DNA of 64,000 bases from Clostridia bacterium (GCA_017472285.1 JAFUQQ010000012.1:2051-66050), one strand, 5' to 3'; shown: positions 4,180-27,008, numbered from the stretch's first letter. Numbers and translations: made by a program. Notes: generated by a model not told the origin, from the letters alone.

Positions 4180-4186
4180 GGTCTAT

Positions 4187-6857: not shown

Positions 6858-8361
6858 CCGTATTTTAACGCAGAATCTTTCCATCGGCTACAACAGCCGA
6901 GAGCATAGGAGAAATCTCAATACCCTCATCGTCGGCGGTAGCGGTTCTGGCAAGACCTTTCATTATGCCAAGCCCAATCTGCTGATGGCAAACACAAGCT
7001 TTGTGTGCTTAGACGTTAAGGGCGAGATCTTACGCGATACGGGAAACGTATTGAGAGAAAACGGATATGAGATTCGCGTATTTGACCTTATCAATATGGA
7101 AAAGAGTCATGGGTATAACCCTTTCGTGTATTTGGATAGCGATAACGATGTGCAGCGGTTGGTAACGAACCTTTTCAAAAGTACAACGCCGAAAGGTACG
7201 CAGTCGCAAGATCCTTTTTGGGATACGGCGGCTTCGATGCTTTTGCTTGCGCTCATCTTTTATCTCAAATATGAAGCCCCCGAAGAGGAACAGAACTTTG
7301 CGATGGTCATGGAAATGCTTCGTGCGGGTGAAGTGGACGAGATGGAAGAGAGTAAGCCAAGTGCGCTTGACGCTTTGTTTGCAGACCTCGAAAGAAAACA
7401 GCCTTATCATATTGCGCTGAAATATTACAAGGCGTATCGAACGGGTTCGGAAAAAACGCTGAAATCCATTCAGATTACATTGATGTCAAAGCTGGAAAAA
7501 TTCAATCTTGATAGCCTTTCTTTTCTTACCGAAGTCGATGAGTTAGATCTTCGCAGTATGGGGGAAAAGAAAGTGGCATTATTTGCGCTGATTCCCGATA
7601 ACGATACGAGCTTTAACTTTTTGGTTTCGATACTTTACACACAGCTATTTCAGCAACTATTCTATGTGGCTGACCATATATACGGCGGTTCGCTCCCTGT
7701 TCCCGTTCATTTCATGATGGACGAGTTCGCAAATGTCGCGCTCCCCGATGATTTTGAAAAAATACTTTCCGTTATGCGTTCTCGCAACGTGTCGGTGAGC
7801 ATCATCTTGCAGAATCTTTCACAGTTAAAGGCGCTCTTTGAAAAGCAATGGGAGAGTATTGTCGGTAACTGTGATGAGTTTGTCTATCTTGGGGGGAATG
7901 AGCAGTCCACGCACAAATACGTTTCGGAACTAATCGGCAAGGAAACCATCGACACCAATAGTTTCGGTAAAAGCGATGGTATGCGAGGAAACTTCTCAAC
8001 GAATTATCAGGTTGCGGGACGAGAACTGCTGACACCCGATGAGGTTCGTATGCTTGATAATCGCTATGCCATCGTTCTGATTCGCGGTGAGCGTCCCGTT
8101 ATGGATGTGAAATACGATATTTTCAAACATCCGAACATTTCCCTCAGCGCGATTGGCGGCGGGGAAGTATACCGTCACGGAAAGGAACGTCTTGCAGCTT
8201 GCGGTATCACCATTGTGAATCTTGCGGATTATCCCGGTAAGCAGATGAAGGATTTTCCGCTGATGGAAAGCGTGGTCGAAGATATTGAAGCTTATGACCA
8301 AGATGAACTTGAAATTTATATTAGTCTAAAGGAGAATATGGAAAATGAAAAAAAGAAATAA
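6847..8361 (+). CDS. VirD4/TraG-type coupling protein (CD1115-like), lacking N-terminal TM region
   Basis: Walker A LIVGGSGSGKTFHYAKPN, plus FVCLDVKGE, YNPFVYL and MMDEFANV. Homology-like sequence (EEHGSAKWGD) continues upstream in-frame to ~6772 without a start codon. First ATG after it is 6847. Confidence 0.8.
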   Translation: MENNRILTQNLSIGYNSREHRRNLNTLIVGGSGSGKTFHYAKPNLLMANTSFVCLDVKGEILRDTGNVLRENGYEIRVFDLINMEKSHGYNPFVYLDSDNDVQRLVTNLFKSTTPKGTQSQDPFWDTAASMLLLALIFYLKYEAPEEEQNFAMVMEMLRAGEVDEMEESKPSALDALFADLERKQPYHIALKYYKAYRTGSEKTLKSIQITLMSKLEKFNLDSLSFLTEVDELDLRSMGEKKVALFALIPDNDTSFNFLVSILYTQLFQQLFYVADHIYGGSLPVPVHFMMDEFANVALPDDFEKILSVMRSRNVSVSIILQNLSQLKALFEKQWESIVGNCDEFVYLGGNEQSTHKYVSELIGKETIDTNSFGKSDGMRGNFSTNYQVAGRELLTPDEVRMLDNRYAIVLIRGERPVMDVKYDIFKHPNISLSAIGGGEVYRHGKERLAACGITIVNLADYPGKQMKDFPLMESVVEDIEAYDQDELEIYISLKENMENEKKK

Positions 8362-9593: not shown

Positions 9594-9941
9594 ATGACAC
9601 GTGCGTTTATAGAGTTGCCGTTATTTCGATCTAAATGGAAAGCTTTGGGGCTTGATGATAATGATCTTCGTAGATTGCAGGAAGAAATTCTTGCTGACCC
9701 GAAAATCGGAAGCGTTATGCAGGGTACAGGCGGTATCCGAAAAATGAGATTTGCCTTTGAACATAGAGGTAAAAGCGGAAGTATCCGTGTGATCTATATT
9801 GATTTTGAAGTATATGAGAAAATTTTTCTGATTACTGCATATCCTAAAAATGAAAAGGATAATTTAACGCAATCGGAAAGAAATGAGCTTCGTCAGTTGA
9901 TTGCCATTTTGGAAAAGCAATTGGAAGATAACGATGTCTGA
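9594..9941 (+). CDS. RelE/HigB-like type II toxin
   Basis: IELPLFRSKWKALGLDDNDLRRLQEEILADPKIGSVMQGTGGIRKMRFAFEHRGKSGSIRVIYIDF...FLITAYPKNEKDNLT, a HigB-2/RelE-type pattern. Confidence 0.7.
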   Translation: MTRAFIELPLFRSKWKALGLDDNDLRRLQEEILADPKIGSVMQGTGGIRKMRFAFEHRGKSGSIRVIYIDFEVYEKIFLITAYPKNEKDNLTQSERNELRQLIAILEKQLEDNDV

Positions 9942-10331: not shown

Positions 10332-10661
10332 ATGGAAATAAAGATCAATACAGAAATCAAAGATTACAATGAAACCATGTTTTTCGGTCTTTCGGTCAGA
10401 CAATTCATATTTGCACTTTTGGCTTGCGGTGCGGCGGTCGGTATCTATTTCGGATGCCGACCGTTTTTGCATACGGAGATTTTATCATGGCTTTGTATGC
10501 TTGGTGCGGCACCGTTCGCGGCACTTGGCTTTGTAAAATACAACGGCATGACCGCCGAGCAGATCGTGAAAGCATGGGTACGAAGTGAATTTATGATGCC
10601 GAGATATTTGGTTTTTCATGGGACGAATCGGTATTACAATAAGGAGGAAACAAGGAAATGA
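10332..10661 (+). CDS. PrgI-family T4SS membrane protein
   Basis: INTEIKDYNETMFFGLSVRQFIFALLACGAAVGIYF plus a second TM. ATGA overlap with the VirB4 start. Confidence 0.7.
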   Translation: MEIKINTEIKDYNETMFFGLSVRQFIFALLACGAAVGIYFGCRPFLHTEILSWLCMLGAAPFAALGFVKYNGMTAEQIVKAWVRSEFMMPRYLVFHGTNRYYNKEETRK

Positions 10662-12976
10662 ACCTTTTTGGAGGCAAAAAGAAGGTTGTGGAAACGGATA
10701 AAATTCCAACGACCGTAGAGCAGGCGATCCCGATTCAAGAGATTTATGAGGACGGAATCTGCCTTGTCGGACGAAATTTATGGTCAAAGACCTTTCGTTT
10801 CACCGACATCAATTATGAGGTTGCATCGCGTGAGGATAAGGAAAAAATGTTTCTCGGATATTCCGAGATTTTGAATAGCTTTGACAGCGGTGCGACAACG
10901 AAAATTACCGTCAGCAATCGTAGAATCCTCAGAAGCAATTTTGAAAAGAACAATATGCTTCGGGAAATGGGGGATTCTCTCGATGGCTTGCGGTATGAAT
11001 ACAACATGATCTTGGAACGCAACGTCAATCTTTCGACGGGCGTTTCGCAAGAGAAATATATGACGGTTACGGTGGAAAAACAGACGCTTGAAGAAGCAAG
11101 ACAGTATTTTAACCGTATCTGTGCGGAATTTACAGCACTTTTTTCGACTCTTGGTTCGGTATTTGAAGAAGTGCGCGAGGTAGAAAAACTCCGCATTTTC
11201 TTTGACTTTTTCCATCATGGAGAGGAAGAAGATTTTTGCTATGACCGATGCCTTACCGAGAAAAGAGGACACAGCTTCAAAGATGCGATTGCACCGCAGT
11301 CGATGGAATTTAGAAGCGATCATTTCAAAATTGAGGGTAGATACGGACGTGTTTTGTATCTCAAAGACTATGCGAATTTCATCAAGGACAGCTTTATCGC
11401 GGAACTGACGGGCATTGACCGCCATCTGATGTTATCCATTGACGCAGATCCCATTCCGATTGAAACGGCGATTCGTCAAAGCGAAAACAAACTTCTGTCT
11501 GTTGAAACGAATATATCGAATTGGCAGAGAAAGCAGAATCAGAACAACAATTTCTCTGCGGCGATTCCCTATGACATGGAACGTCAGCGAACGGAGAGCA
11601 GGGAATTTCTCAATGACCTTGTGGCGCGAGATCAACGTATGATTCCAGCGCTCATTACCATCGTTCATACTGCCGACACGAAAGAAGCGCTTGATGCGGA
11701 TACCGAACGCATTCGCTCCTGTGCGAGAAAGCATTTATGTGGGCTGACAATTCTCCGATGGCAGCAGCTTGAAGGTCTGAATAGTTGCTTGCCTTATGGT
11801 TGCAGAAAACTTGGTATTCGCAGAACGCTGACAACGGAATCTCTTGCGGTGTTTATGCCGTTTCGCGTACAGGAAATTTGTCATAGCAAGGGTATCTATC
11901 TTGGCAACAATGCGATTTCCAAGAATCCGATTATCGTAAATCGTTCGGAACTTCTGAACGGCAATTCCTTTATTCTCGGTGTTTCGGGTTCGGGGAAGTC
12001 TATGCTTGCCAAGCAAGAGCTTGTGAATATCTATCTTTCCGATCCGAACGCAGATATTTTCGTAATCGATCCCGAAAGGGAAATGACGGAGATCGTGAAC
12101 ACCTTGGGCGGAGAAAATATCAAGCTTTCTGCCGCAAGTGAGAATCACATCAATGCTTTGGATATGAGCCGAGATTACGGGGATGGAGAAAATCCGTTGA
12201 TTCTCAAAAGCGAATTTATGCTTTCCCTTTGCCGTGATATTGTCGGCAACTTGGGTGCGAAAGAAAAATCGATCATTGACCGTTGCACTTCGATTGTGTA
12301 TCGGGACTATTTGCTTCACGGTTGCGTCGGAGAAGCACCGACGATGAAAGCCTTTTATGATACACTTCTCATGCAAGATGAACTTGAAGCAAAGGAATTG
12401 GCACTTGCCTTGGAACTATATATCAACGGCAATCTGAACATTTTCGCAAAGCCAACGAATGTAAATCTGCAAAGCCGTTTGGTTTGCTATGACATTCATG
12501 GACTTGGCGAGGAATTGATGTCCCCGTCTATGCGAATCGTTCTTGACAGCATCTATAACCGCGTGACCAGCAATAAAGCGAAAGGAAGAAAAACGTATAT
12601 TTTCATTGATGAGATATACATTCTTTTCGCGCATGAGCATTCTGCACAGTTTTTGCATAAGCTTTGGCGCAGAGTACGAAAAGCCGGCGGTTATGTAATC
12701 GGTGTTACGCAGAATGTCGAAGATTTGCTTGATAGTCCGACCGCAAAGTTTATGCTTGCAAACTCCGAGTATGTAATTATGCTCAATCAAGCGGCAACTG
12801 ACCGTATGCGCCTTGCGGAAGTGATGAAGATTTCCGAATCGCAGATGGCGTATTTTACGAATACGGAAGCGGGACACGGACTTGCAAAGATCGGCGGTGC
12901 GTTTGTGCCTTTTGTCAACTGTCTGCCGAAAGATACAGAACTTTACCGCATGATGACAACGAAATTTGGTGAGTAA
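10658..12976 (+). CDS. virB4: VirB4-type conjugal transfer ATPase (CD1110-like)
   Basis: 772 aa. Walker A ILGVSGSGKSMLAK, Walker B-like TYIFIDEIYILF, GVTQNVEDLL. Confidence 0.9.
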   Translation: MNLFGGKKKVVETDKIPTTVEQAIPIQEIYEDGICLVGRNLWSKTFRFTDINYEVASREDKEKMFLGYSEILNSFDSGATTKITVSNRRILRSNFEKNNMLREMGDSLDGLRYEYNMILERNVNLSTGVSQEKYMTVTVEKQTLEEARQYFNRICAEFTALFSTLGSVFEEVREVEKLRIFFDFFHHGEEEDFCYDRCLTEKRGHSFKDAIAPQSMEFRSDHFKIEGRYGRVLYLKDYANFIKDSFIAELTGIDRHLMLSIDADPIPIETAIRQSENKLLSVETNISNWQRKQNQNNNFSAAIPYDMERQRTESREFLNDLVARDQRMIPALITIVHTADTKEALDADTERIRSCARKHLCGLTILRWQQLEGLNSCLPYGCRKLGIRRTLTTESLAVFMPFRVQEICHSKGIYLGNNAISKNPIIVNRSELLNGNSFILGVSGSGKSMLAKQELVNIYLSDPNADIFVIDPEREMTEIVNTLGGENIKLSAASENHINALDMSRDYGDGENPLILKSEFMLSLCRDIVGNLGAKEKSIIDRCTSIVYRDYLLHGCVGEAPTMKAFYDTLLMQDELEAKELALALELYINGNLNIFAKPTNVNLQSRLVCYDIHGLGEELMSPSMRIVLDSIYNRVTSNKAKGRKTYIFIDEIYILFAHEHSAQFLHKLWRRVRKAGGYVIGVTQNVEDLLDSPTAKFMLANSEYVIMLNQAATDRMRLAEVMKISESQMAYFTNTEAGHGLAKIGGAFVPFVNCLPKDTELYRMMTTKFGE

Positions 12977-13026
12977 AAAGAAACGGGCTGCAACCATCGT
13001 TGCGGCCCATTTCATTTGGAGGGGTT

Positions 13027-14073
13027 ATGAAGATTAAGACGAGAGAATCCTTGCGGGATATACGGGTATTTGATAAAACAAAAGATTTATCCGAGAGAAC
13101 AAGAAGCGGTATTGGTGAGTTTTCAAAAAACACAGAATCCTCACAGAGCAGTTCTGCAAATGATTATGCAAGTAATTTTGTAAGTGAGAAAGCCGAGCGT
13201 ATCGGAAAAAGCAGTACGTATGCCGCTGATCGTGCAGGACAAATGGGTGTGCGCGAAACACAGAAAAATATATCGAATCTGAAAAATCGTCCTCATAAGG
13301 TCAAGAAACCAAAAACCAAGGCGAATGTTCCCAAACGCTTGAAATCGGCAGGGAAGAATACGGTGAAGACTTCTGAAAGAATAAAGCAAACGGTTAAGAG
13401 ATTATCCAAAGGCGTGGTAAAAGCGGCGAAAGCTGTGGTGTCGGCGATAAAAGTCATGATTGCCTCAACTAAAAGTATTGTTGCCGCTATTGTCGCGGGC
13501 GGTTGGGTTGCTGTTGTGGTCATTCTTGTTATTTGTCTTGTGGCGGCGATTGCAGGTTCTGTTTATGCAATCTTTCTTCCTCCGGCAGGGGATAGCGGTA
13601 TGACGTTGCAAAACGCAGTACGCATGATTGAAAATGAATACTACGAAACGCGCGATGAGATGATTTCGGGATATGACTACGATGTAATTCATTACAACAG
13701 CGAGCTTGCAACGTGGAAAGAAATGATTGCCTTTTATGCGGTGAAACTGAATCTTGATACAGAAAACCCGACGGAGCTTGCGACATTTAACGAAGAAAAA
13801 GCCGATGAGCTTCAGCAAGTGTTTTGGGATATGAACCGTATTCAGATTCATACCGAAGCGGTAGATGAGGTCAGAAGCACAACTTTTATCGATGAATATG
13901 GGAATGTTTCAACGGTCGAAACGGTGGTTGAAGTTGTGCATTTGTATGTCAATACAGAGATTACAAGTATAGTGAATTTATGTGAAATATATGGTTTCAC
14001 CGAGGTTCAACGTGAGATGCTGGCGGAACTTATGAGTGATGAGAATGATTTGATGTGGGAACCCTCACATTAA
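13027..14073 (+). CDS. T4SS-associated membrane protein, apparently the N-terminal part of a CD1108-like cell-wall hydrolase (truncated)
   Basis: GGAGGGG RBS then ATG 13027. Basic N-terminus, one TM ([25 protein letters not shown]), then a short domain. The ORF stops exactly where the AT-rich island begins, and no hydrolase domain is present. Confidence 0.45.
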
Positions 14074-14108
14074 ATAACTGTGGAATATTTCAAAAAGTCG
14101 AAAAAGGT

Positions 14109-14135
14109 TGTAACTTTTTTCAACTTTTTTCGTTA
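14109..14135 (+). promoter_or_regulatory. ECF-type promoter-like motif, copy 1 (also part of an A/T hairpin + T-tract)
   Basis: TGTAAC (14109-14114), 16 nt, CGTTA (14131-14135). A near-identical ~55-nt block recurs at 17672-17727. Confidence 0.45.
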
Positions 14136-14205
14136 TATAACAACATCATGAAAATTACGGTCGTATAATGTGTTTTTAGATTAAAAAATAATAAGGAGAA
14201 AAAGA

Positions 14206-15282
14206 ATGAAATATTTAGGTTTGCTAATTTCAATTCTTGTCATTGTTGCTGTTTTGGCCATCTTTAAAATGATGACATTAATTGTAAGATATCGTCATAA
14301 TATCTCATTATGGTGGAAAAGATATTCAATATGGAAATTTATTGTAAATGTTTTTCTTCCGTTTGCAATTCCGTTTGTTATCACAATTGTTGTAACTATA
14401 TCCGGCGGAGATGATTATAAACCCTTTAAACCACCATTTTTATTTTTATGTGCAATGTGTGTGTTTGCGATTGTAAATTTGTGTTTCCAGTTGCGATTTT
14501 GGATCAAAGAGCATAAAGAAAGGAAACTTGAATGGAAATACCAAGCTTCACATCATGCTTATTATAGCTTATATGATGTTATTAAAGAAAAGAATATCCA
14601 ATATGGAATCAAATCTATTGAGATAAAAAACGGATATATTCCAGAAAAAATGATTCCGTATAATGTTTTTGATCAAATTCGAAGAATATGCTCTGCATTT
14701 CGTCATGCAGTGGCACATATTACAGGTATTGATACAATTCATATTACTGTATCATTTATTTACCATTATACATACGAGGATACAACGAAAGATGATCGTA
14801 ATTGGCGCTGGATTATGGGTAAAGATTCAGGATTTGACATTTCTCTGAAAGATTTTACGAAACGAGATGAATCTATGTATCACTACTTGATAAATAATAA
14901 CTCAGCGATGGCTTTTTATAATGATAAAAAAGATGCTGCGGAAGACTGTAAATATTATTTTTCGTACAAGGATCGTTTACATAATAATGAAGGTTCTTTA
15001 TTTGCTTCCAAAGTATCCTTTGCCAATAATCTTGGCACATGTTGTGAGGGAATTCTCATGATAACAACATACGGTCAGAAATTTGTAGAATCAAATTCAG
15101 AACATACACCGGATGAATTTAAAAAATTACTATTAGATGAGATATTTCCTTGTTATAAAAATCTTTTGAAGATAGAATTAGGAATGCTATATTTTAGACA
15201 CAAGACAGATAGACATCATTATTCTATAAAAACAATACAAAAAATTATTTCTGATAAAACGAAGAAAGATAATGAAGTGTAG
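14206..15282 (+). CDS. membrane protein of unknown function (N-terminal TM helices + ~230-aa soluble domain)
   Basis: AAGGAGAAAAAG RBS before the ATG. Hydrophobic segments LLISILVIVAVLAIF, IVNVFLPFAIPFVITIVVTI and FLFLCAMCVFAIVNLCF. No recognisable motif in the C-terminal domain. Confidence 0.55.
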   Translation: MKYLGLLISILVIVAVLAIFKMMTLIVRYRHNISLWWKRYSIWKFIVNVFLPFAIPFVITIVVTISGGDDYKPFKPPFLFLCAMCVFAIVNLCFQLRFWIKEHKERKLEWKYQASHHAYYSLYDVIKEKNIQYGIKSIEIKNGYIPEKMIPYNVFDQIRRICSAFRHAVAHITGIDTIHITVSFIYHYTYEDTTKDDRNWRWIMGKDSGFDISLKDFTKRDESMYHYLINNNSAMAFYNDKKDAAEDCKYYFSYKDRLHNNEGSLFASKVSFANNLGTCCEGILMITTYGQKFVESNSEHTPDEFKKLLLDEIFPCYKNLLKIELGMLYFRHKTDRHHYSIKTIQKIISDKTKKDNEV

Positions 15283-15371
15283 TTTCCTATGGATATAGTT
15301 TTTATATTGGCTGCTTGTAATAAATATTTTCGAAAACGTTCTTGAAGATATTGTATTAGGTTGTGACGAAA

Positions 15372-15410
15372 ACAGTCCCTTTTCATTTAGATTGGAAAGG
15401 GACTGTTTTT
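15372..15410. terminator. bidirectional terminator between convergent genes
   Basis: ACAGTCCCTTT / AAAGGGACTGT 11-bp stem, flanked by A-run and T-run. Confidence 0.75.
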
Positions 15411-15729
15411 ATAAATCAGGCTTACTGATATGTTCCAAAAGATCCATAAGCATTTTTATGGTAATACTGTCAGTGTGGCGAACATATTTTAGGAGTTCGT
15501 TTTCAAGCACAGGATTTTCGACACCATCATCGAAAAAATCTTTAGGTGTGATTTCAAAGTATTCGCAAATATAAAGAAATTCTTTCATGGAAGGAAGCGA
15601 TTTGCCTGATGTAATACCTCTAATATAGCTATCACCATGTCCCAATTCGTGACTCAATTTATATTCGGAAATGTTTTTTTGAAGTCGAAGTTGAGTAATT
15701 CTTTTTCGAATATATTCATCGTATTGCAT
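15409..15729 (-). CDS. XRE-family HTH regulator
   Basis: IRKRITQLRLQKNISEYKLSHELGHGDSYIRGITSGKSLPSMKEFLYICEYFEITPKDFF. Confidence 0.75.
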   Translation of the reverse strand: MQYDEYIRKRITQLRLQKNISEYKLSHELGHGDSYIRGITSGKSLPSMKEFLYICEYFEITPKDFFDDGVENPVLENELLKYVRHTDSITIKMLMDLLEHISKPDL

Positions 15730-15802
15730 ATTAATCCCTCCTTCTACCTATATTATACAATAAATATTTATTAAAATATGGTGATTAATAAACCATAAGC
15801 TA

Positions 15803-15831
15803 TTGACTTATAGCGAATAAAAAACTATAAT
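15803..15831 (+). promoter_or_regulatory. sigma-A type promoter for the 15883-17655 operon
   Basis: TTGACT (15803-15808), 17 nt, TATAAT (15826-15831). Confidence 0.55.
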
Positions 15832-15882
15832 TATGGTGTGATATGGTTTTCTATAATCTAATATGTAAGAAAGGCAGTTTTT

Positions 15883-16269
15883 ATGAAATATAGATTTGAC
15901 TATTCAAATGAATTGCAAAAGGATATTCTCTTTTTTAATGATGCAAAAGTAGAACAGATTAAAGATAAAAGTGTTATTGATAAATTAAATCTTATTTCAA
16001 CTCTTATACAATCATTAACGAACCGATCAAATGCGCAACTGTTATATAATTGGAATTCAATTGCAAGGGTTAGGGGTGATATAATTGAGTATGAAAAAAA
16101 TGATTTATATTTGATTATTAGATACTATTTTAATGAATTTCAATCTTTTTTGAAAAACGATAGTTTATTATGTTCTGTAATAGATGATTCCGTATTGCTT
16201 TGTGATTATCTTAATATAAGAAATATTGAAAACTATATAGTGATAGAAATATTCTTGAAATTAGATTGA
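15883..16269 (+). CDS. hypothetical protein
   Basis: 128-aa ORF, AT-rich codon usage consistent with neighbours. The stop overlaps the next ORF. No motif recognised. Confidence 0.4.
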   Translation: MKYRFDYSNELQKDILFFNDAKVEQIKDKSVIDKLNLISTLIQSLTNRSNAQLLYNWNSIARVRGDIIEYEKNDLYLIIRYYFNEFQSFLKNDSLLCSVIDDSVLLCDYLNIRNIENYIVIEIFLKLD

Positions 16270-16346
16270 TTTTTTCTAAGGTCTATGTTATAGTGAAATT
16301 GTTTGAAGCAAGAGAAAATATTCGTTCAAATAAAAAGGGGGAGGCC

Positions 16347-16964
16347 ATGTTACCGATTATTCTCGCTATCAACAATGAGGATGATAGAAATTTTGTGGAA
16401 AAAATCTATGTTCAATATGGGAAAAAGATATACAAGGTGGCATTTAAGGTTTTAAATAATTCTGAAGATGCGGAGGATTGTTTGCATGATGTGATCAAGA
16501 TTATCATTGACCATTTAGATGTATTTCAATCTGCAGACGGGGAACGCTTTATTAAATTACTTGTCACTTGTACTCGTAACGCAGCACTCGATATTTATCG
16601 CAAAAATAAAATTAAACATATCAATGAGAGAAAACATAAACCATATACCAATGATGAAATGGATGCTGATAATGATAATAATCATGATGTTGATATTGAA
16701 AATGTTCCAGATGAGAATATGTTTTCCGATTTGATTTTGATTAATGAAGAAAGTCGCAAACGGATTTCGGAAATGATAGAGGAATTAGACCCTATTTATA
16801 GAGACGTCTTATATTTGCGCTATCAATATTCGATGAAAAATCAAGATATTGCTAAATTATTGAAAGTGTCGGAAAGTGTTGTAAAGGTTAGATATCATAG
16901 AGCTAAAAAGCTATTATTGCAGAAAAGGGGGAAGGAACTCAATGAAATGCGAAAGAATGGATAA
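16347..16964 (+). CDS. sigma-70 family (ECF-like) RNA polymerase sigma factor
   Basis: GGGGGAGG RBS then ATG 16347. Region 2-like EDAEDCLHDVIKIIIDH...TRNAALDIYRK, region 4 HTH YRDVLYLRYQYSMKNQDIAKLLKVSESVVKVRYHRAKKLL. Confidence 0.8.
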   Translation: MLPIILAINNEDDRNFVEKIYVQYGKKIYKVAFKVLNNSEDAEDCLHDVIKIIIDHLDVFQSADGERFIKLLVTCTRNAALDIYRKNKIKHINERKHKPYTNDEMDADNDNNHDVDIENVPDENMFSDLILINEESRKRISEMIEELDPIYRDVLYLRYQYSMKNQDIAKLLKVSESVVKVRYHRAKKLLLQKRGKELNEMRKNG

Positions 16965-17655
16965 GTATGACTATTTGATTGCACTGTCAACCTTGGATGC
17001 AAAAGATGATGATGTGAAGATGTTTATGGAACTTGATGATTCTGATGTGGTGCTTAGCGATCATATTACGGATAAAATCGAGAAGCTGATTCGTAGAGAA
17101 TCTGCATACAAAACTACCGGTTTTGTCCAATTTAAGCGAATTTTGTCAAAAGTTGCAATTATAACACTGGTTGTAATTTCTATCATGTTCACAGCAATGA
17201 TGAGTGTTTCTGCCATCAGATCTGCTATTTGGGAAATTATTACAGAATGGTATGAAGAATATATTGCAGTGGGCTATGTTCCCGAAGAGGGATTTGAAGT
17301 TGTTGAACCTCCTAGTATGATTGAAGAAATTCGCAAACCGACACTTTTGCCGCTTGGGGCGGAAGAAGAGGTAGGAATAAATTTAAAATCTGCGTTTACT
17401 TGTGATTATTATATAGGTGATCGTTGCTATGTTTCATTTAGCCAAAGCTTGCTTACAAGTGATGTTGGAATGTTAGATGGTGATGATGCTACGATGACGG
17501 AAATCATGGTAGGTGAGTATAAGGCATGGCTTTTTACTTATGAGAAGGAAGGATACATATATATATTATGGAATGATACGAAATATTCATACCAAATTTC
17601 TAGTACAGTTTTGAGTGTTAATGAATTAGCTCTAATTGCAGAAAGTATAAAATAA
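16942..17655 (+). CDS. anti-sigma factor-like membrane protein (DUF4367-like C-terminus)
   Basis: Overlaps the sigma gene end. Single TM (VAIITLVVISIMFTAMMSV). C-terminal ...YSYQISSTVLSVNELALIAESIK, typical of DUF4367 anti-sigma partners. Confidence 0.6.
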   Translation: MKCERMDKYDYLIALSTLDAKDDDVKMFMELDDSDVVLSDHITDKIEKLIRRESAYKTTGFVQFKRILSKVAIITLVVISIMFTAMMSVSAIRSAIWEIITEWYEEYIAVGYVPEEGFEVVEPPSMIEEIRKPTLLPLGAEEEVGINLKSAFTCDYYIGDRCYVSFSQSLLTSDVGMLDGDDATMTEIMVGEYKAWLFTYEKEGYIYILWNDTKYSYQISSTVLSVNELALIAESIK

Positions 17656-17690
17656 AAAAATTTATAAAATTTCAAAAAATCCGAAAAAGT

Positions 17691-17717
17691 TGTAACTTTT
17701 TTCGGATTTTTTCGTTA
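17691..17717 (+). promoter_or_regulatory. ECF-type promoter-like motif, copy 2 (also a terminator-like hairpin)
   Basis: TGTAAC (17691-17696), 16 nt, CGTTA (17713-17717). TCCGAAAAAG/CTTTTTTCGGA stem plus T-run. Confidence 0.45.
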
Positions 17718-17752
17718 TATAGCAATATCAAATAATGATTGGGGGATTTCTT

Positions 17753-18163
17753 ATGAAAAAAACTTTGGTAATTATCATTTCTGTAGTATGCGTGTTTATT
17801 TGGGCTGTATTACCCTGTTACGCAGTAAGTTTAACGAATATCGTGCCGAGGTGGAATAATGTAGGTGGTGTCAATACTTCATTAGTTTTTTACGAAAATG
17901 TTGGTGAAGCGGTGGCGTATGTAACTAAAGGTGAGTCTGTAACCACTTTGGAAGGAACAATTACTATCTATAAATTTCAGAATAACGAATGGATATATGA
18001 GGATTCTATTTCAAAGAGTACTACTCGTGCTACATTAAATATGGCAATGGAATTCGAGGGGACAAGCGGTTTGGAATATAGAATGGACTTTGTTGTAATA
18101 GCGTATAGCGGAACAACTGTAATTGAGGAGATTACAGATGTAGAGTATGCCACATGTCCTTAA
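17753..18163 (+). CDS. small secreted protein (signal peptide)
   Basis: GGGGGA RBS then ATG 17753. MKKTLVIIISVVCVFIWAVLPCYA signal-like N-terminus. Confidence 0.55.
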   Translation: MKKTLVIIISVVCVFIWAVLPCYAVSLTNIVPRWNNVGGVNTSLVFYENVGEAVAYVTKGESVTTLEGTITIYKFQNNEWIYEDSISKSTTRATLNMAMEFEGTSGLEYRMDFVVIAYSGTTVIEEITDVEYATCP

Positions 18164-18395
18164 TGAATGATATAGTGATTTTAAGAATGTGAATAAGCTA
18201 TAATATTTTCGAAAGAATATTTGTGACTATTAATATGGTACCCTATTATAAGGATTTAGTTGTAACGAAGTACCGGTGGGGATGGATAGGGGCTCGTGGA
18301 TGTACTGTGTGTTATGTTGGCACTAAAAAGAATTGTATCCGCATCATGGTGTCGTGTATACGTTCAAACTTTAAGATATTAAATTTTGGTGATGT

Positions 18396-19541
18396 ATGAT
18401 GAAAATGATTGAGTTCTCCAATAAGACGAATATTTTGCTCAATGATATTGACGTTGATTTATTGTATTTAAATATTTACTTTGATGTTGGTTTCAAAGAT
18501 GATGTTGACTTTCAAATTGGAGCTGCTCATCTTGCTGAACATATCATTTCAAAAAGTGTAATTAAAAATTTGAATTTGATACAATCGCCATTTAGTTGGA
18601 ACAATGCTTATGTGAGTAAAGAATATACTTGTTTGTGGCATGTAATAAAAAAGGAAGATGAAAATCGCATTGTTTCGTACATTAAGGAATATCTTTCTCT
18701 TATTCAAAATGTAAATAAATACAATTTAATAAATATTGATGGAGAAAAAGAAAGGTTTTATGCTGAGAATGATGCTATTCTTGCAAACACTTTATTGATG
18801 AATTTGCTTTATATTGAATATCAGCTTTTTACAGACGGATATTCAATCCCAAGTTTTTTCTGTGACACAGAAGAAAACTATTTTACTAAATTAAAAGAAA
18901 ATTCGATTCATATGCTTTCAGATCGCTATAAAAATAGCCGTATTACAATAGTAATAACAGGAAAAATTTCCTCTGATATCTTGCAATCATTAACTAATAT
19001 GTGTGTAACGAGAAAGGTTGACGATTGCGAAATTATAAATAAGGTTTATGAAAATATAAAATTCCCACATTATAAAAAGTTGTGTTACATTGCATATAAA
19101 ATATGTATATATGAATTGGAGGGCTCTATTTATCAGCTCGATATATTGGCAAGGTTTTATCAAATTATTTCCAGCAATTATACATACAGAAAAGTTATTT
19201 GTAATTATCAAATTAAGGTTATAGATAATGAAATCCTATTTGCTGTGTTTTTTTATGATAAGAAAGGGATGGATGCTTTTTGCAGTATAGATTTTAACCA
19301 TGCCTTATTATCAAGTGTAGAACTGATTTTCTCAATAAAAAACGAATTAGCTTTCACCTTGGCTAAGAATCTCTCCGATCCTTTTAAGATGAATTTTCAG
19401 ATATATAAGGCTTATCGCGATATGCATAAGCTTCTCAATAAAATGGAGGTTTTACAAACCGTTTATAATATTACTGAAAATGATTTGCAATGCGTTCACA
19501 ATTTAGTAAGAAAAAATGAGGCTCTTAGATATTCTGAGTGA
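18396..19541 (+). CDS. M16 (pitrilysin/insulinase)-family peptidase, candidate leader peptidase
   Basis: Inverted zinc motif HxxEH present as GAAHLAEHIISK near the N-terminus. First gene of the colinear cluster. Confidence 0.65.
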   Translation: MMKMIEFSNKTNILLNDIDVDLLYLNIYFDVGFKDDVDFQIGAAHLAEHIISKSVIKNLNLIQSPFSWNNAYVSKEYTCLWHVIKKEDENRIVSYIKEYLSLIQNVNKYNLINIDGEKERFYAENDAILANTLLMNLLYIEYQLFTDGYSIPSFFCDTEENYFTKLKENSIHMLSDRYKNSRITIVITGKISSDILQSLTNMCVTRKVDDCEIINKVYENIKFPHYKKLCYIAYKICIYELEGSIYQLDILARFYQIISSNYTYRKVICNYQIKVIDNEILFAVFFYDKKGMDAFCSIDFNHALLSSVELIFSIKNELAFTLAKNLSDPFKMNFQIYKAYRDMHKLLNKMEVLQTVYNITENDLQCVHNLVRKNEALRYSE

Positions 19542-19561
19542 TATAGGGGGGATAATTAAAA

Positions 19562-20965
19562 TTGGATAATAGAATTTTTCGTTTGAATCCGGAGTGTAAA
19601 CTTGTCATTTCCAATAATAAAGGTGTTTTATTGTTATGTAAACCTTATTGTAATAATCCAGAAAACAATTCGGAACATTATAGAATATCGTATATTACAG
19701 CACTAATCATTAATAATTTGGATGGTCGGCACACAGTAAATGAAGTTGCTCAAATATTAGGTCATTTATTTAATCAAAAAGACAAGGTCGATTATTTAGA
19801 ATCACGAGTATGTGCAGTAATTTGCATGTTTGAAAAAGCATTTGACGCTTTATCAACAAAGGATATTCTAGTAAAACGTATATATTCGGATGAATATATT
19901 ATTAAAACGATTGCTTATTATGACAAAAGCGAATTTAAGTTACAGAGACTTTCGTTCCCCAGACAAATAGTGATGAGAATCACTAATTTGTGTGACAAAA
20001 AATGCATATATTGCTATCAGTGTTCATATAAAAATGAATCTGATCTTGAATATTTGACAATGGATCGAATGTCTGATATATTGAAAGAAGCGGCTGGAAA
20101 CGGGACTGAAAATTTGATTGTTACTGGTGGTGAACCATTTGTAAGAAAAGACATTTACAAGATCATAGAAATGGCATCGAATCAAAAGCTAAAGGTTTTT
20201 GTATCCACAAAACGGGCATTGAGCCAAGAGCAGTTGCAATTGCTTTTTTTCAGCGGTATATCTGAGTTGCAGTTCAGTGTTGACACAAACAATACACAAA
20301 TATTGCAAAAATTGACAGGCGGTAATACTGATTTTAGTGAATATCTCTCCTCTATCAAAATGGCTTTGAAATTAAATATTAATGTTATTGTTAAAGCGGT
20401 CATAACGTCTTTGAATATCAAGACTATTCCGCTGTATGTAGAGGAACTACAACAAATTGGCGTGAAACATATTAAATTGAATTATTATGAGTTAAACTGT
20501 AAGAGCAATGATTTTGGCTTGTTGCCAGACATATCGTCAATGAAATGGTTGGATGATAATATGAAAATAATATGTAAAAGGGCGCAAGCAAAAATCGAGT
20601 ATGATTATGATATGGCTAAAATGATACTCGATAAGAAGTATCGCGATTTACATAGAAAAAGATGTTTGGCATTCAAGGATACGATATATATTAGAGAAGA
20701 CGGAAAGGTTTCTTTCTGCGAAATGCTGATGGACTATCCTGAATTTATCGTTGGTGATTTGCGTACTCACACTATCCTTGATATTTGGAATTCTAACGAG
20801 ATAGATTCATATATTGTTCCAGATAAAACAAAATTCGAGAATACAGTTTGTTATACTTGCCATGATTTTTATACTTGCTTTGAAAAAAGGTGCTTTATGA
20901 GGACATATGCACAATATCATAAAAAATTTATGCCTGATCCATGGTGCAATAAATATGAGAATTGA
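19562..20965 (+). CDS. radical SAM/SPASM peptide maturase 1
   Basis: TTG start after GGGGGG RBS. CxxxCxxC = CDKKCIYC. C-terminal auxiliary-cluster cysteines (CLAF..FCEM...CYTCHDFYTCFEKRC). The N-terminal ~100 aa could be a PqqD-like RRE (inference). Confidence 0.8.
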   Translation: MDNRIFRLNPECKLVISNNKGVLLLCKPYCNNPENNSEHYRISYITALIINNLDGRHTVNEVAQILGHLFNQKDKVDYLESRVCAVICMFEKAFDALSTKDILVKRIYSDEYIIKTIAYYDKSEFKLQRLSFPRQIVMRITNLCDKKCIYCYQCSYKNESDLEYLTMDRMSDILKEAAGNGTENLIVTGGEPFVRKDIYKIIEMASNQKLKVFVSTKRALSQEQLQLLFFSGISELQFSVDTNNTQILQKLTGGNTDFSEYLSSIKMALKLNINVIVKAVITSLNIKTIPLYVEELQQIGVKHIKLNYYELNCKSNDFGLLPDISSMKWLDDNMKIICKRAQAKIEYDYDMAKMILDKKYRDLHRKRCLAFKDTIYIREDGKVSFCEMLMDYPEFIVGDLRTHTILDIWNSNEIDSYIVPDKTKFENTVCYTCHDFYTCFEKRCFMRTYAQYHKKFMPDPWCNKYEN

Positions 20966-20982
20966 AAGGACGGAGATGACTG

Positions 20983-22017
20983 ATGAATATCGATGATTAT
21001 GTTATAATCGCACCACAGAAGAAGCATCCCGATGTTGTGTTTTTTAATACAAGACAAGGCTCAATTCAAATTAATACTAACATTGATCATGTTGAAAGAT
21101 TCATAACCGATGATAATTATATTAGTGATACAGCCAAAGGAAATATTATAGGTTCTGTGAGCATAATTTGCAAACCTGGGTTGTTCAAAAATGAAGTTAA
21201 TCAATATGCTGATGGTCAATTTATAAAAAAGGAGGATTTGATCTATAGTGTTGGTGTAGAAAACACTATTTTTTGCAATGAAGAATCAAATTTGCTAATC
21301 AATCATTACCCAGTTTGCAATTTGCTTTATTTTAATACTAATCATAACTATGCGCTATGTGTTATACCGAGTGAGGATGTTGCTGGGTTTCTAGCAAAAA
21401 TGGCTATCAAAAGACTATCTGCGAATTATAATTACAGAACCAAGGCATATTTTTCATTACATGCATCTTGTGTAACTTATTTGGATATGGCTTTTGTTTT
21501 TATTGCTGGCGGCAGAGCAGGTAAAACGACATCCTATTTAAACTTAGTAAGCGATAGATATTTTCCAATGAATGATGATGTTTTGTTTTGGAAATGTGAA
21601 CAAGATGATATTACTATTGACAGCATCCCACTAAAAGTAAACATAAGAGAAAATAGTCTTCGTTATTTGAGATTTCCACTTGATTTAACTATATGCAATA
21701 AAGGTTTTGATAATGAATTATATGTAAGCACGGATAAACTCTTTAATAAAACAATCAGCTCTCCAAGCAAATTAAAAGCAATATTTATTCCTGAGATTAA
21801 TCATAAAATTACAACAATAAAGAGAATAAATTCTAAGGATTATTTAAAGCGCATTTTAAGATCTTGTATGACGCATGACCAATTAACGCTAGACGAAAAT
21901 TTTGTAGAATCATTTAACCGATTGATGAAATATTCAATTTACAAAATTGAAATTTCAGACGATGCAGAAGAATTCTTGACATGTTTCAACGCTTTTGTTA
22001 ATACTGTTAGCATTTGA
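20983..22017 (+). CDS. HPr-kinase-like P-loop protein
   Basis: LHASCVTYLDMAFVFIAGGRAGKTTSYLNLVSDRYFPMNDDVLFW matches the HprK C-terminal core pattern (H..v....gvl..G.sG.GKS....L...G....DD). Confidence 0.55.
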   Translation: MNIDDYVIIAPQKKHPDVVFFNTRQGSIQINTNIDHVERFITDDNYISDTAKGNIIGSVSIICKPGLFKNEVNQYADGQFIKKEDLIYSVGVENTIFCNEESNLLINHYPVCNLLYFNTNHNYALCVIPSEDVAGFLAKMAIKRLSANYNYRTKAYFSLHASCVTYLDMAFVFIAGGRAGKTTSYLNLVSDRYFPMNDDVLFWKCEQDDITIDSIPLKVNIRENSLRYLRFPLDLTICNKGFDNELYVSTDKLFNKTISSPSKLKAIFIPEINHKITTIKRINSKDYLKRILRSCMTHDQLTLDENFVESFNRLMKYSIYKIEISDDAEEFLTCFNAFVNTVSI

Positions 22018-22042
22018 AAATGGTGAAGAAGGAGCTGTTTTG

Positions 22043-22189
22043 ATGTCAAATTGCATATTATATGAGTTAACAAAACTTATTGAGGAATGGGAGTATTCAA
22101 TTGATGATTTGGACAATATTAAAATTTTGGAATTATGCACAGGGGGAGCATATTCCCTGGCGTGTCAGAATGGCTGTCAACAGAGGTGA
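22043..22189 (+). CDS. RiPP precursor peptide paralog a (48 aa, 3 Cys, shortened core)
   Basis: GAAGGAG RBS, ATG 22043. MSNCILYELTKLIEEWEYSIDDLDNIKILELCTGGAYSLACQNGCQQR. The leader is homologous to b and c. Confidence 0.7.
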   Translation: MSNCILYELTKLIEEWEYSIDDLDNIKILELCTGGAYSLACQNGCQQR

Positions 22190-22323
22190 TCTTGCTACCC
22201 AACATGAATATCGAGCGAATAAGATGAAGGCGTGGACGATGGAAAAAATCATCCGAATATAAAATATTTGACAGATTATGCAGGAATGTTATGAATATAA
22301 AAACATTGTAAGGGGGTGCAATA

Positions 22324-22482
22324 ATGGATCTTAAACTGGATGAGCTTCGCGAATTGATTGATGAATTGGGATATTCTTTGAACGATCTCGATAATATTGA
22401 AATATTAGCAGCGTGTACAGGAGTTGCTTGTCAACAAAGCTGCCAGCCGGCTTGCCAGCCTGGATGCAGTAATAAACCTTAA
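22324..22482 (+). CDS. RiPP precursor peptide paralog b (52 aa, 5 Cys); not in ORF track
   Basis: AAGGGGG RBS, ATG 22324, TAA 22480-22482. MDLKLDELRELIDELGYSLNDLDNIEILAACTGVACQQSCQPACQPGCSNKP. Confidence 0.8.
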   Translation: MDLKLDELRELIDELGYSLNDLDNIEILAACTGVACQQSCQPACQPGCSNKP

Positions 22483-22853
22483 TGATGATTTGTTTGTAAA
22501 AAGCAAACTCTTTACTGCAACAGTTTACAAACAAGATTCCGATACTGATCATTTTGAATTTTTCTTTCAGAAAATGTGATGCGTAATGTTTAAATATATC
22601 ATGTTTCGATTCATTTTGGTTAGCGGCTCGAATGCGCATATCTGCTGGTAACTCAGCAGATATGCGGAAAAACTGCTTAATCGAATCTGTATTATAAGGC
22701 GATGTATGGTGCTTTTCATTGGCGAACTTGAGGTTCTAATATAAATCTGTCAAGCTGTTATCACTTTATTGTAACAGAAATATGCATAGCTACAAATACT
22801 GTCGTGGCGTCGGCTGCAGCTATGGTTATTTTACACCAAAGGAGTATAATATC

Positions 22854-23015
22854 ATGGAGTATAATTTGGACGAATTAAAAAGCATTATTGAGGAATTGGG
22901 ATATTCACTTGATGATTTGGCGAATATTGAAATATTGGCATCCTGCACAGGAGTTTCATGTTCCTCTGCGTGTCAAAACGGCTGTCAACAAGGGTGCTCT
23001 GCTACAAGCAAGTAA
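22854..23015 (+). CDS. RiPP precursor peptide paralog c (53 aa, 5 Cys)
   Basis: AAAGGAG RBS, ATG 22854. MEYNLDELKSIIEELGYSLDDLANIEILASCTGVSCSSACQNGCQQGCSATSK. Confidence 0.8.
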   Translation: MEYNLDELKSIIEELGYSLDDLANIEILASCTGVSCSSACQNGCQQGCSATSK

Positions 23016-23061
23016 TTAATCATTGTCGGATTATTCCCTATTTTACTTAAACATGGAACAA

Positions 23062-23204
23062 GTCGTACAAGCAATGTCATTAAGTTAAGAAAAAAGGTAT
23101 TCGCCCGAGATCCTTCGGCATAGGCTCCCACTGTCATTCTTGAGTGCCTACGCCTCGAGGGTGACACGGGCGTCATGCTTATCTTAATGACATTGGTCGT
23201 ACAA
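23062..23204. mobile_element. MITE-like insertion (13-bp terminal inverted repeats, 9-bp direct-repeat flanks)
   Basis: CAATGTCATTAAG (23072-23084) and its exact reverse complement CTTAATGACATTG (23183-23195) enclose a GC-richer hairpin-rich core. GTCGTACAA occurs at 23062-23070 and 23196-23204. Confidence 0.55.
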
Positions 23205-23239
23205 TTATTCGTATTATCTCAACGTAGGAGTGGAACATA

Positions 23240-25042
23240 ATGAGGACCGTTAAAAATATAATGAAGACTATCAAGAATATAGTGAAGATGTTCGACCAAG
23301 CGGTGATGCTTGATAAAGGGTTTATATTTGTTTTCATTCTTTATACTGTACTATCATCGCTGGCAAATATCATTTTACTTTATATCCCCAAATTTTCAGC
23401 TGAGCTTGTCGGAGCAAATTTCAAAAATGTTAACCTATTATATCTTACCGCTCTCGCCATTGTTTTGACTGCCATCTTTGAGTTCGGTTCCGAGTGGATG
23501 TTTGATATATTCAATAGCAGAATATTTCCCATTCGTTTTGGCTTTATCGGGAAGCTGAGTGAAAAGTTTTCTTCATTGGATTATTGCAAAATCATGCAGG
23601 AAGAGTATGTTACGAAAGGTTCTTTTGCTTTTAATGCCATGAAATCCAATGATGTGGGTGTTCAATGTGTCTTACGTGAAATCTTTGTCATATTTTCGTC
23701 CCTCCTATCCATTATTTTGGCGACTGGAATTCTTTCAAACCTTCATATTAGTATTGTTCTTTTATGTGTTATTTTTGCCGTGGTATCATTTGTTCTGCAA
23801 AAAGAAAGAGATAAGCTCTATTTCAAATTTGCTAAAGATAGAGTGAAACTTGACAATAGAGTATCAAATTCATTGAATTTATTATACGATATCCGATATG
23901 GTAAAGAGCTTAGGATGTACGATACCAATAAGCTGATTCTGAATCAGTATTCTTCTTTAATGAAAGAACAACGAAAAAGAAATAACAGGAATAATCTGAA
24001 GTTCCAGATCTTCAACATATGCGGTGTCATATTGGATAAAGGCAAGAATATCTGTATTTATTTTGTGCTGATCTACTTGTATTTTCAAAGTAATATGTCT
24101 CTTGGTGATTTTATTTTATTTATCGGCGCCAGTACAGAATTGTCTTTGTGGCTGAAGAACTTTATTATTCATTTTTCCGCGATTGCAAACAACGGGAGAT
24201 ACATCAATGAATATTATGACTTTTTGAGTATCAGCGATGAATCCTCAAAAACAGAGGAGCTTCATGTTGATCATGTGAAGGATATGACGATAGAATTCAG
24301 AGATGTAAGCTTCCGTTATCCGGAAAGTAATAAATATGTGTTGCAGAATGTTTCTTTGACCATTCACAATGGAGATACGGTTGCTTTAGCTGGATTAAAC
24401 GGTGCGGGAAAGACCACTTTTATATATTTGCTCATGAGACTGTATGAACCGACGGAAGGCGCAATTTTTCTCAACGGAGTCAACATAAATCGGTATTATA
24501 AAAAAGAGTATTGGACGCTGATTAATCCGCTGTTTCAGGATTTCAATATTTTCGCCTTTGACATACGACAGAATGTTTCGCTGAAGACGAAAAAACTTAC
24601 GGATGACCAAAAGGTGGAAAAAGCCTTGGGAAAAATCAATCTTCTTGAAAAAATCAAACAATTGCCGACCAGTACGAAAACGATGTTGACGAAAGAAATT
24701 GACTCGGATGGTTTGCAATTTTCTGGAGGAGAGAGTCAGCGATTGGCGTTTGCCCGTACACTGTACAGGGATAATTCTCTGCTACTAATATTAGACGAGC
24801 CCTCCGCGTCGCTTGATCCCTTGGCAGAAGCGGATCTTTATAAAGAATTCAAAGAATTGAGCCGTGGAAAAACATCTTTGTTTATTTCACATAGGTTTGC
24901 CAGCGTTTCCTTTTGTGACTATGTTATCTTTTTGAATGATGGAAAAGTATCGGAGATCGGCACACACAAAGAATTGATAGAGAAAAATGGTACTTATGCG
25001 GAATTGTACAAAATACAATCTGACTTTTTCCATTCTAAATAA
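23240..25042 (+). CDS. ABC exporter, fused permease/ATPase (half-transporter 1)
   Basis: N-terminal TM domain. Walker A GLNGAGKTT, signature FSGGESQRL, Walker B LLILDEPSASLD. Confidence 0.9.
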   Translation: MRTVKNIMKTIKNIVKMFDQAVMLDKGFIFVFILYTVLSSLANIILLYIPKFSAELVGANFKNVNLLYLTALAIVLTAIFEFGSEWMFDIFNSRIFPIRFGFIGKLSEKFSSLDYCKIMQEEYVTKGSFAFNAMKSNDVGVQCVLREIFVIFSSLLSIILATGILSNLHISIVLLCVIFAVVSFVLQKERDKLYFKFAKDRVKLDNRVSNSLNLLYDIRYGKELRMYDTNKLILNQYSSLMKEQRKRNNRNNLKFQIFNICGVILDKGKNICIYFVLIYLYFQSNMSLGDFILFIGASTELSLWLKNFIIHFSAIANNGRYINEYYDFLSISDESSKTEELHVDHVKDMTIEFRDVSFRYPESNKYVLQNVSLTIHNGDTVALAGLNGAGKTTFIYLLMRLYEPTEGAIFLNGVNINRYYKKEYWTLINPLFQDFNIFAFDIRQNVSLKTKKLTDDQKVEKALGKINLLEKIKQLPTSTKTMLTKEIDSDGLQFSGGESQRLAFARTLYRDNSLLLILDEPSASLDPLAEADLYKEFKELSRGKTSLFISHRFASVSFCDYVIFLNDGKVSEIGTHKELIEKNGTYAELYKIQSDFFHSK

Positions 25043-25054
25043 TCGGAGGCCTGT

Positions 25055-26821: not shown

Positions 26822-27008
26822 ATTTGCACAAAATCTCAAATTATCGTGAGTTCTATACAGCATAAAAAACTTATATTATGTGAATTTTCGGAGTTTTAGT
26901 GGTCGAAGTATACATATAAATAATAAAATCAATAGCTGATTAAGGTAAAAAAGGCGATAAAATGGGATAGCGTGTTATATATTTACTGAATTTAACCTAA
27001 AAGAGAAG

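Follow-up and report, generated by a model that had tools for sequence, protein, structure and literature searches.

Two copies of a hairpin module around the sigma factor operon of a clostridial conjugative element: a probable intrinsic terminator with a built-in ECF promoter

The stretch of DNA analyzed here (64 kb from Clostridia bacterium, GCA_017472285.1 JAFUQQ010000012.1:2051-66050; below, the window) carries a conjugative element and, within it, an operon encoding a sigma factor of the extracytoplasmic function (ECF) type. A 78-nt module is present on both sides of this operon as a direct repeat on the + strand, with copy 1 at 14071..14148 and copy 2 at 17653..17730 (81% identity), and this pair is the largest direct-repeat family returned by the repeat search in 12000-20000. 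Copy 1 starts at the stop codon of a 357-aa gene of the conjugation module and copy 2 at the stop codon of the putative anti-sigma gene, the TAA of the upstream + strand gene being the first bases of both copies. The genes between the copies are, in this order, those of a 358-aa membrane protein, a convergent XRE-type helix-turn-helix (HTH) protein, a 128-aa open reading frame (ORF), the ECF sigma factor and an overlapping DUF4367 protein. Copy 2 is followed by genes of a secreted 136-aa protein, two radical S-adenosylmethionine (SAM)/SPASM enzymes, ATP-binding cassette (ABC) transporters and two Cys-rich precursor-like peptides.

The sigma factor (205 aa; 16347..16964, + strand) is of the ECF type (group 4 of the sigma-70 factors) and matches only Sigma70_r2 and Sigma70_r4_2 in Pfam. 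Its TIGR02937 score is 86.6 bits (cut-off 42.9), no equivalog model is reached, and it is not an orthologue of SigW or SigX, as the NCBIfam scores are 53.0 for SigW (cut-off 209) and 50.6 for SigX (cut-off 260). It has 98 homologues, nearly all from gut or rumen metagenomes, and for none of them does the source give a specific name. The gene that follows (16942..17655, + strand), whose start overlaps the end of the sigma gene, encodes a protein with one transmembrane helix and an extracytoplasmic DUF4367 domain. Position and topology suggest that this protein is the anti-sigma factor; it matched no anti-sigma domain family, and literature searches gave nothing usable on DUF4367 anti-sigma factors or on an ECF group with such a partner. 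The layout expected of an ECF system, that is, a sigma factor with regions 2 and 4 only and an adjoining putative anti-sigma gene, is thereby found close to both modules.

Each copy of the module contains a predicted ECF promoter (14109..14138 in copy 1 and 17691..17720 in copy 2, both on the + strand). The -35 word TGTAAC (14109-14114; 17691-17696, in the hairpin loop of copy 2) is directly followed by a T6 tract (14115-14120; 17697-17702), the -10 element CGTTATAT occupies 14131-14138 and 17713-17720, and transcription would start at about 14141-14146 and 17723-17728, respectively. AAC in the -35 element, CGT/GTT in the -10 element and a spacer of approximately 16-17 nt form the bipartite pattern of ECF promoters. 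The exact string TGTAAC-N16-CGTTA occurs in the window only at 14109-14135 and 17691-17717, and allowing one mismatch yields three matches (0.69 expected). With a position weight matrix derived from 24 related sites (see below), both copies score 29.4 bits and the next best site in the window 11.8.

The same bases form A/U-rich hairpins that end in T6 in both copies. In copy 1, the hairpin with its T-run spans 14092..14129 (+ strand); its A/U-rich stem, which contains a C/A mismatch, is weaker than that of copy 2 (-14.9 kcal/mol, z-score -3.4, none of 200 shuffles as stable; -12.3 kcal/mol for the 45-nt core). In copy 2 (17674..17712, + strand), the arms 17674-17688 and 17698-17712 are a 15-nt inverted repeat with 100% complementarity, and the fold has -16.0 kcal/mol (z-score -4.7, again none of 200 shuffles). 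A stable stem-loop with a U-run directly after it, 3' of a co-directional gene, is what an intrinsic terminator should look like. The covariance model matches copy 1 at 14083-14150 with 71.1 bits and copy 2 with 72.5 bits; it also matches the minus strand, the element being near-palindromic. The T-run of copy 2 ends only about 40 nt before the ATG at 17753, which leaves a dedicated promoter no room except in overlap with the terminator. A search of both strands of 13500-18500 against Rfam, at E-values of up to 1, matched none of its structured RNA families. The module does not behave as a dispersed repeat of the repetitive extragenic palindromic (REP) or miniature inverted-repeat transposable element (MITE) kind, with just two copies in 64 kb.

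An earlier note on this DNA had described a duplicated module with TGTAAC-N16-CGTTA and a hairpin. Both sequences that it quoted are present in the window, and the gene neighborhood is as it described, with the ECF sigma gene at 16347-16964, the 358-aa gene at 14206, the 136-aa gene at 17753 and, at 16942-17655, the gene of the DUF4367 membrane protein. The ends given for the copies were off by 1-2 nt, the quoted sequences spanning 14091-14143 and 17673-17725, and the duplication itself extends beyond the proposed length of about 55 nt to 78 nt. The compensatory differences that it saw at the base of the stem (GTCG/CAAC against TCCG/CGGA) are partly right: copy 1 retains the C/A mismatch, and true compensation becomes visible only across related loci.

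About 20 such loci (L numbers below) were found through homologues of the sigma factor; a search with a narrower sigma alignment gave five genome loci and 12 mostly short metagenome loci. The order of genes for sigma factor, DUF4367 protein and a protein of about 140 aa is kept down to 42% sigma identity. Sigma and DUF4367 genes stand in this order in 11 fetched homologue lineages, namely L001, L002, L003, L006, L007, L008, L012 and L013, together with L016, L017 and L019, for which the order was deduced from the ORF layout. The module follows the anti-sigma gene in every locus that has at least 52% sigma identity and reaches the end of that gene, and it is found at the same place in L018, L020 and L028 (47-51% sigma identity), where a different protein of about 400 aa is encoded in the anti-sigma position. 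Moreover, in L001 and L003 the orthologue of the conjugation gene is followed by a module like copy 1, whose site (at 2890 and 6961, respectively) again lies 5' of the orthologue of the predicted target gene.

The words of the predicted promoter are strongly conserved. Down to about 47% sigma identity, loci retain the loop word (T/C)GTAAC, the T5-6 next to it and (C/T)GTTATA. When 21 modules from loci with sigma factors 49-97% identical are aligned, no variation is seen in TGTAA of the loop or, past the T-run, in the G, T and A of GTTA; the T-tract that comes after AAC is retained too. All 24 sites taken together read (T/C)GTAA(C/G/T), T5-6, a total spacer of 16-17 nt and (C/T)GTTA(T/A)A, with T5-6 directly after AAC in 23 of them; a further site, in L025, has TGAAAC.

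The hairpin is conserved in a different manner. Folding energies of -12 to -24 kcal/mol, with z-scores of -4 to -8.6, were obtained for 20 of the 21 modules, and the G+C cores of the stems differ in almost every lineage, with changes in both arms (TCCG/CGGA, GCACCG/CGGTGC, GCACCC/GGGTGC, ACACCG/CGGTGT, GCATCGG/CCGATGC, GCGG/CCGC and GAGCG/CGCTC). In the covariance-model alignment, two-sided changes are seen in 8 of 16 pairs, and the covariation score is 0.224, compared with 0.110 for shuffles (reached by 0 of 500) and for slid controls, which do not exceed 0.145. Because the stem register differs between clades, RNAalifold detected no more than the A-U part of the stem when given the ungapped MAFFT alignment, and the covariance-model alignment was used in its place.

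Three sites keep xGTAAx-N16/17-(C/T)GTTA with no hairpin: L019 at 7356 (0.0 kcal/mol), L028 at about 690 and L011 at 5130. Little of the second T-run remains in any of the three. No co-directional gene directly precedes the L011 site, nor, apparently, the L028 site (where the closest + strand ORF on the 5' side stops about 255 nt short of the motif). As hairpin-free sites keep both words and their spacing, hairpin and promoter are separable, and both the hairpin and the two promoter words appear to be under selection. In L018, L020 and L028 the motif is found approximately 45-50 nt 5' of the sigma gene, and in L011 it stands before the gene with which the sigma operon begins; ECF promoters for autoregulation are usually located in this position.

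The -35 word varies along with the sigma factor. Its variants are common to both sites of a locus (TGTAAT in L019, CGTAAC in L028). The predicted recognition helix of region 4.2 reads VVKVR in all TGTAAC loci of the sigma alignment and also in L028 with CGTAAC, VVNVR in L017 (TGTAAG) and L019 (TGTAAT), NIRMR in L012 (TGTTGC) and LVSQR in L013 (TGTCAT). The direction of these changes is the one predicted by co-evolution of helix and word, in a small sample of lineages that are not independent.

Since the words are invariant, the stem changes with its pairing kept, and the motif stands 5' of sigma genes in relatives, the module is most likely a terminator combined with an ECF promoter. We consider it probable that each of the two copies is an intrinsic terminator with a built-in promoter for the ECF sigma factor of 16347-16964. 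On this view, A-run, G+C core and 3' T-run would form the terminator, whereas loop word, T5 tract and GTTATA would form the promoter, and the hairpin-free sites have the pattern to be expected from this division. The earlier note had suggested a combined terminator and ECF promoter, for which the conserved -35 element, T-tract and -10 element beside a stem that turns over, the hairpin-free sites and the motif 5' of sigma operons now argue. Its suggestion of a small element-encoded regulon agrees with the motif search that it had proposed, which, run on the window, returned exactly two TGTAAC-N16-CGTTA sites. The likeness it saw between TGTAAC-16 nt-CGT and the logic of Bacillus ECF promoters stands, with the qualification that the C of CGT is not conserved across the family.

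The proposed mechanism is as follows. In the RNA, the hairpin and U-run of the module would stop the upstream transcript, so that copy 1 would end the conjugation (type IV secretion) operon and copy 2 the operon of the 128-aa protein, sigma factor and anti-sigma factor, which is presumably transcribed by sigma-A. In the DNA, the same bases would be a promoter for the sigma factor, with the -35 element TGTAAC in the part that forms the hairpin loop, the -10 element CGTTATA after the U-run, and the T5-6 tract in a double role, as -35-proximal T-tract of the promoter and as 3' arm of the hairpin. The sigma operon would be driven by sigma-A, possibly under control of the XRE protein. Release of the sigma factor by the membrane anti-sigma factor with its DUF4367 ectodomain would lead to initiation about 6-9 nt past CGTTA, at copy 1 towards the 358-aa membrane protein, and at copy 2 towards the secreted 136-aa beta-sandwich protein and probably the downstream radical-SAM genes for ribosomally synthesized and post-translationally modified peptides (RiPPs). 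The terminator half would keep the targets silent until then, and their expression would be tied to sigma activity and not to read-through from upstream.

This proposal can be compared with well-studied systems. In Bacillus subtilis, sigma-W promoters have TGAAAC-N16-CGTA, those of sigma-X have CGAC, and sigma-M and sigma-V belong here too (Gaballa et al. 2018, PMC5758882). The general grammar of these promoters is AAC-n-TTTT and CGT(A/C/T), where the -35-proximal homopolymeric T-tract is functional and stimulates the promoters (PMC5758882). The module has the same composition, namely xGxAAC, T4-6 immediately after it, a 16-17 nt spacer and a -10 element that begins with CGT, and, as in B. subtilis, the sigma factor consists of regions 2 and 4 only and its gene is followed by that of a (putative) membrane anti-sigma factor. 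Unlike in B. subtilis, the core of the -10 element is GTTATA with a dispensable C, the -35 element lies in the loop of a conserved terminator hairpin, the sigma factor is no orthologue of those of B. subtilis, and its operon does not look autoregulated. With Rho-independent terminators of Firmicutes, including bidirectional ones, the module shares a stem-loop with a G+C core, the A-run and U-run, the position after a stop codon and the compensatory evolution of the stem. It differs from ordinary intrinsic terminators in the loop and in the 7-8 nt past the U-run, which are invariant and not needed for termination, and in its unusually long, A/U-rich stems.

Several results weigh against the combined terminator and promoter. 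A simple scan with a terminator consensus listed neither copy, the stems being mostly A-U and that of copy 1 weak. The C of CGT is replaced by T in L002 and in the entire clade with 52-57% sigma identity, GTTA being the invariant core, and the most distant loci (L012, L013-15) still have hairpin and T-run but no longer AAC. The motif was not found in 15730-16346, so the autoregulation usual for ECF sigma factors is absent from the window, where the sigma operon has a sigma-A-type promoter. A gap of 233 nt between the 136-aa gene and the RiPP genes of the window makes their co-transcription less certain. Finally, the covariation was counted on an alignment fitted to the structure and thus leans towards structure, and the related loci were found via the sigma gene, occurrence without a sigma gene having been checked on viral contigs only.

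The strongest alternative, in our judgment an unlikely one, is that the modules are intrinsic (and bidirectional-looking) terminators only, their likeness to promoters being due to chance or recent common descent. The hairpin and T-run are indeed the most widely conserved part, remaining in the distant loci where AAC is lost; both copies lie directly after a stop codon, and the covariance model matches the nearly palindromic element on the minus strand as well. However, a terminator normally leaves the loop and the bases after the T-run free to vary, and exactly these are invariant here while the stem turns over. Three sites that keep the words with no hairpin, the motif 5' of the sigma gene in some relatives, and -35 variants that follow changes in the region 4.2 helix are equally hard to reconcile with termination alone.

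With a somewhat lower probability still, the modules could contain ECF-type promoters read by another, host-encoded chromosomal sigma factor, the neighboring one controlling something else. Such cross-recognition has precedent, since ECF regulons of Bacillus overlap and T-tracts broaden recognition (PMC5758882), and the lack of the motif before the local sigma operon would fit it. However, the motif goes together with the sigma homologue in settings as different as chromosomal loci, a defence island and conjugative elements; four lineages have it before the sigma gene, and it changes along with the recognition helix.

It is very improbable that the palindrome is a site for protein binding or recombination, be it an operator for the XRE protein or a cassette border dating from the insertion of A+T-rich cargo. 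Such a site would fit the long and nearly perfect inverted repeat, the position of copy 1 exactly at a drop in G+C content from 44% to 30%, the two copies flanking a 3.5-kb segment as direct repeats, and the different cargo 3' of the cassette in relatives. Against this, it is the pairing of the stem and not its sequence that is kept, which fits RNA structure better than an operator. Furthermore, the XRE gene is missing from the module-bearing loci L003, L008, L012 and L016-L020, and on these two grounds the operator was rejected. As for recombination, the module precedes the conserved 140-aa gene, in relatives it keeps synteny with the sigma cassette and does not mark the junction to the variable cargo, and chromosomal loci have a single module. 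A housekeeping sigma-A promoter with -35 TTGTAA (4 of 6 positions of TTGACA) and -10 TATATA (resembling TATAAT) can practically be dismissed and was rejected for its spacer, which would measure 20-21 nt where 16-18 nt is the range; it is also absent from the output of the promoter scan, and TATATA is replaced by AAAG or TAAG in several relatives.

If the module is a terminator with a built-in promoter for the ECF sigma factor, this provides a testable promoter motif and a two-promoter regulon for an uncharacterized clade of ECF sigma factors that is common in metagenomes of gut and rumen Clostridia. It also suggests how a RiPP cluster on a conjugative element gets switched on, and a compact part joining a terminator to an orthogonal promoter might be of use in Firmicutes engineering. 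In actinomycetes, ECF sigma/anti-sigma pairs switch on RiPP clusters, as MibX/MibW do for microbisporicin. In the window, the ECF sigma factor and putative membrane anti-sigma factor likewise adjoin a RiPP cluster and probably control it. The differences are the host (Clostridia), the DUF4367 anti-sigma factor, the radical SAM/SPASM class of RiPP and the location of the cassette on a conjugative element, where in relatives it stands before other cargo (a 2115-aa RHS/YD protein in L003). The system is thus most likely of a well-known kind (ECF sigma factor, anti-sigma factor, cognate promoters), its distinctive feature being the conserved overlap of terminator and promoter, and the current understanding of ECF regulation is not challenged. 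Tentatively, and with somewhat more doubt than confidence, one may go further and regard the -35 element in the terminator loop of this family of clostridial ECF systems as a selected, conserved design, where an element of about 50 nt both insulates and starts transcription, and the portable cassette of sigma factor, DUF4367 protein and beta-sandwich protein as a signal-gated switch on conjugative elements for interchangeable antagonism cargo. This cargo would then be the radical-SAM RiPPs in the window, L001, L006 and L009, and the RHS/YD toxin in L003.

The predicted target of copy 1 is the 358-aa protein (14206..15282, + strand), which has N-terminal transmembrane helices, no family match and a 95% identical counterpart in L001. 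In L003 (7060-7500) its orthologue is cut to 146 aa and the HTH and 128-aa genes are missing, with the copy 1 module 5' of it still intact. The conserved predicted target of copy 2 is the 136-aa secreted protein (17753..18163, + strand), with a signal peptide and a seven-strand beta-sandwich (mean AlphaFold pLDDT 84.4), whose structural matches are only generic Ig-like beta-sandwich domains; a 100% identical copy of this protein bears an IJ489 locus tag. The proteins of about 140 aa encoded after the anti-sigma gene form one family, present in all loci with a DUF4367-type anti-sigma gene. PADLOC and PHROGs assigned no function to the 358-aa, 128-aa, 136-aa, 357-aa, 381-aa and 344-aa proteins.

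The cargo after the sigma/DUF4367/~140-aa trio varies, comprising radical-SAM RiPP genes in L001, L006 and L009 and the gene of a 2115-aa RHS/YD-shell protein in L003; the chromosomal L012 has a strong terminator instead. These stretches span 6981-11471 in L001, 2349-9089 in L006, 4049-7794 in L009 and 9938-16285 in L003, those outside L003 being distinct radical-SAM RiPP clusters with ABC transporters. In close relatives (L001, L006) the cargo begins 35-66 nt after the 140-aa gene with no hairpin in the gap, and co-transcription of this gene and the cargo is therefore likely there. Within the corresponding gap of the window lies a Cys-rich 54-aa ORF (18235-18399) with no clear ribosome-binding site. 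Two paralogous peptides of 52-53 aa (22324-22482 and 22854-23015) have the common leader …LDEL..IEELGYSL.DL.NIEILA and Cys-rich cores (CTGVACQQSCQPACQPGCSNKP), and are likely precursors for the SPASM radical-SAM enzymes.

The sigma operon begins with the gene of the 128-aa protein (15883..16269, + strand; 70% identical in L001). Before this operon, which continues with the sigma and anti-sigma genes, there is a sigma-A-type promoter TTGACT-N17-TATAAT (15803..15831, + strand) that agrees with the consensus in 11 of 12 positions and has both hexamers invariant in L001 and L002; the operon therefore does not look autoregulated. Autoregulation is common in ECF systems, but not obligatory. The XRE/Cro-type HTH protein (15409..15729, - strand; Pfam HTH_19 and HTH_3) is encoded divergently from the sigma operon, and its gene is kept in L001 and L002. 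ATGGT/ACCAT words (ATGGTGATTAATAAACCAT) are found at 15777-15795, just 5' of the sigma-A-type -35 element, and again at 15832-15850, 3' of the -10 element, and are likewise kept in L001 and L002. They are candidate operators for the divergently encoded XRE protein, a possible gatekeeper of sigma operon transcription. A 17-nt inverted repeat with 94% complementarity (15369..15409, no strand assigned), situated where the 358-aa and HTH genes converge, is likely a bidirectional terminator.

The genes of the conjugative element in the window include those of a relaxase (4091-5545), a coupling protein (6703-8361), PrgI (10332-10661), a VirB4-like ATPase (10658-12976) and a large serine recombinase (39115-40740). 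The G+C content is about 44% up to 14.0 kb, the exact position of copy 1, and about 30% from there on, staying low until about 34 kb (27-32% within 14000-34000). This sharp drop places the A+T-rich cargo, that is, the sigma cassette and the RiPP cluster, inside the conjugative element, with the genes of VirB4 and the 357-aa protein on its 5' side. The conjugation genes also enclose a gene of a RelE-family toxin and its HTH partner (9594-9941 in the window, with an adjacent HTH ORF; seen in L033 at 1842-2514).

A degenerate third module was observed in L002 (9971-10035; hairpin and TGTAGC-N16-CATTATAA), between a 139-aa gene on its 5' side and a small ORF that starts about 75 nt further on; the site has perhaps decayed or is weak. 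The motif scan of viral contigs revealed no hairpin-type module. Large phage contigs with about 35% G+C (IMGVR_UViG_3300012147_000006, 142 kb; 3300028361_000013, 168 kb; 3300012031_000006, 88 kb) each contain dozens of near-identical copies of TGTAACTTTTT-N10-CGTTATA (equivalent to TGTAAC-N15-CGTTATA), located some 25-35 nt before an ATG and having no hairpin. The fetched phage fragments contain no homologue of the window sigma factor, and the phage collection holds no close relative of the multi-copy promoter of these phages. The repeats, seen in viral loci L035, L043, L045, L061, L074, L105 and others, look like a phage-wide ECF-type promoter unrelated to the module.

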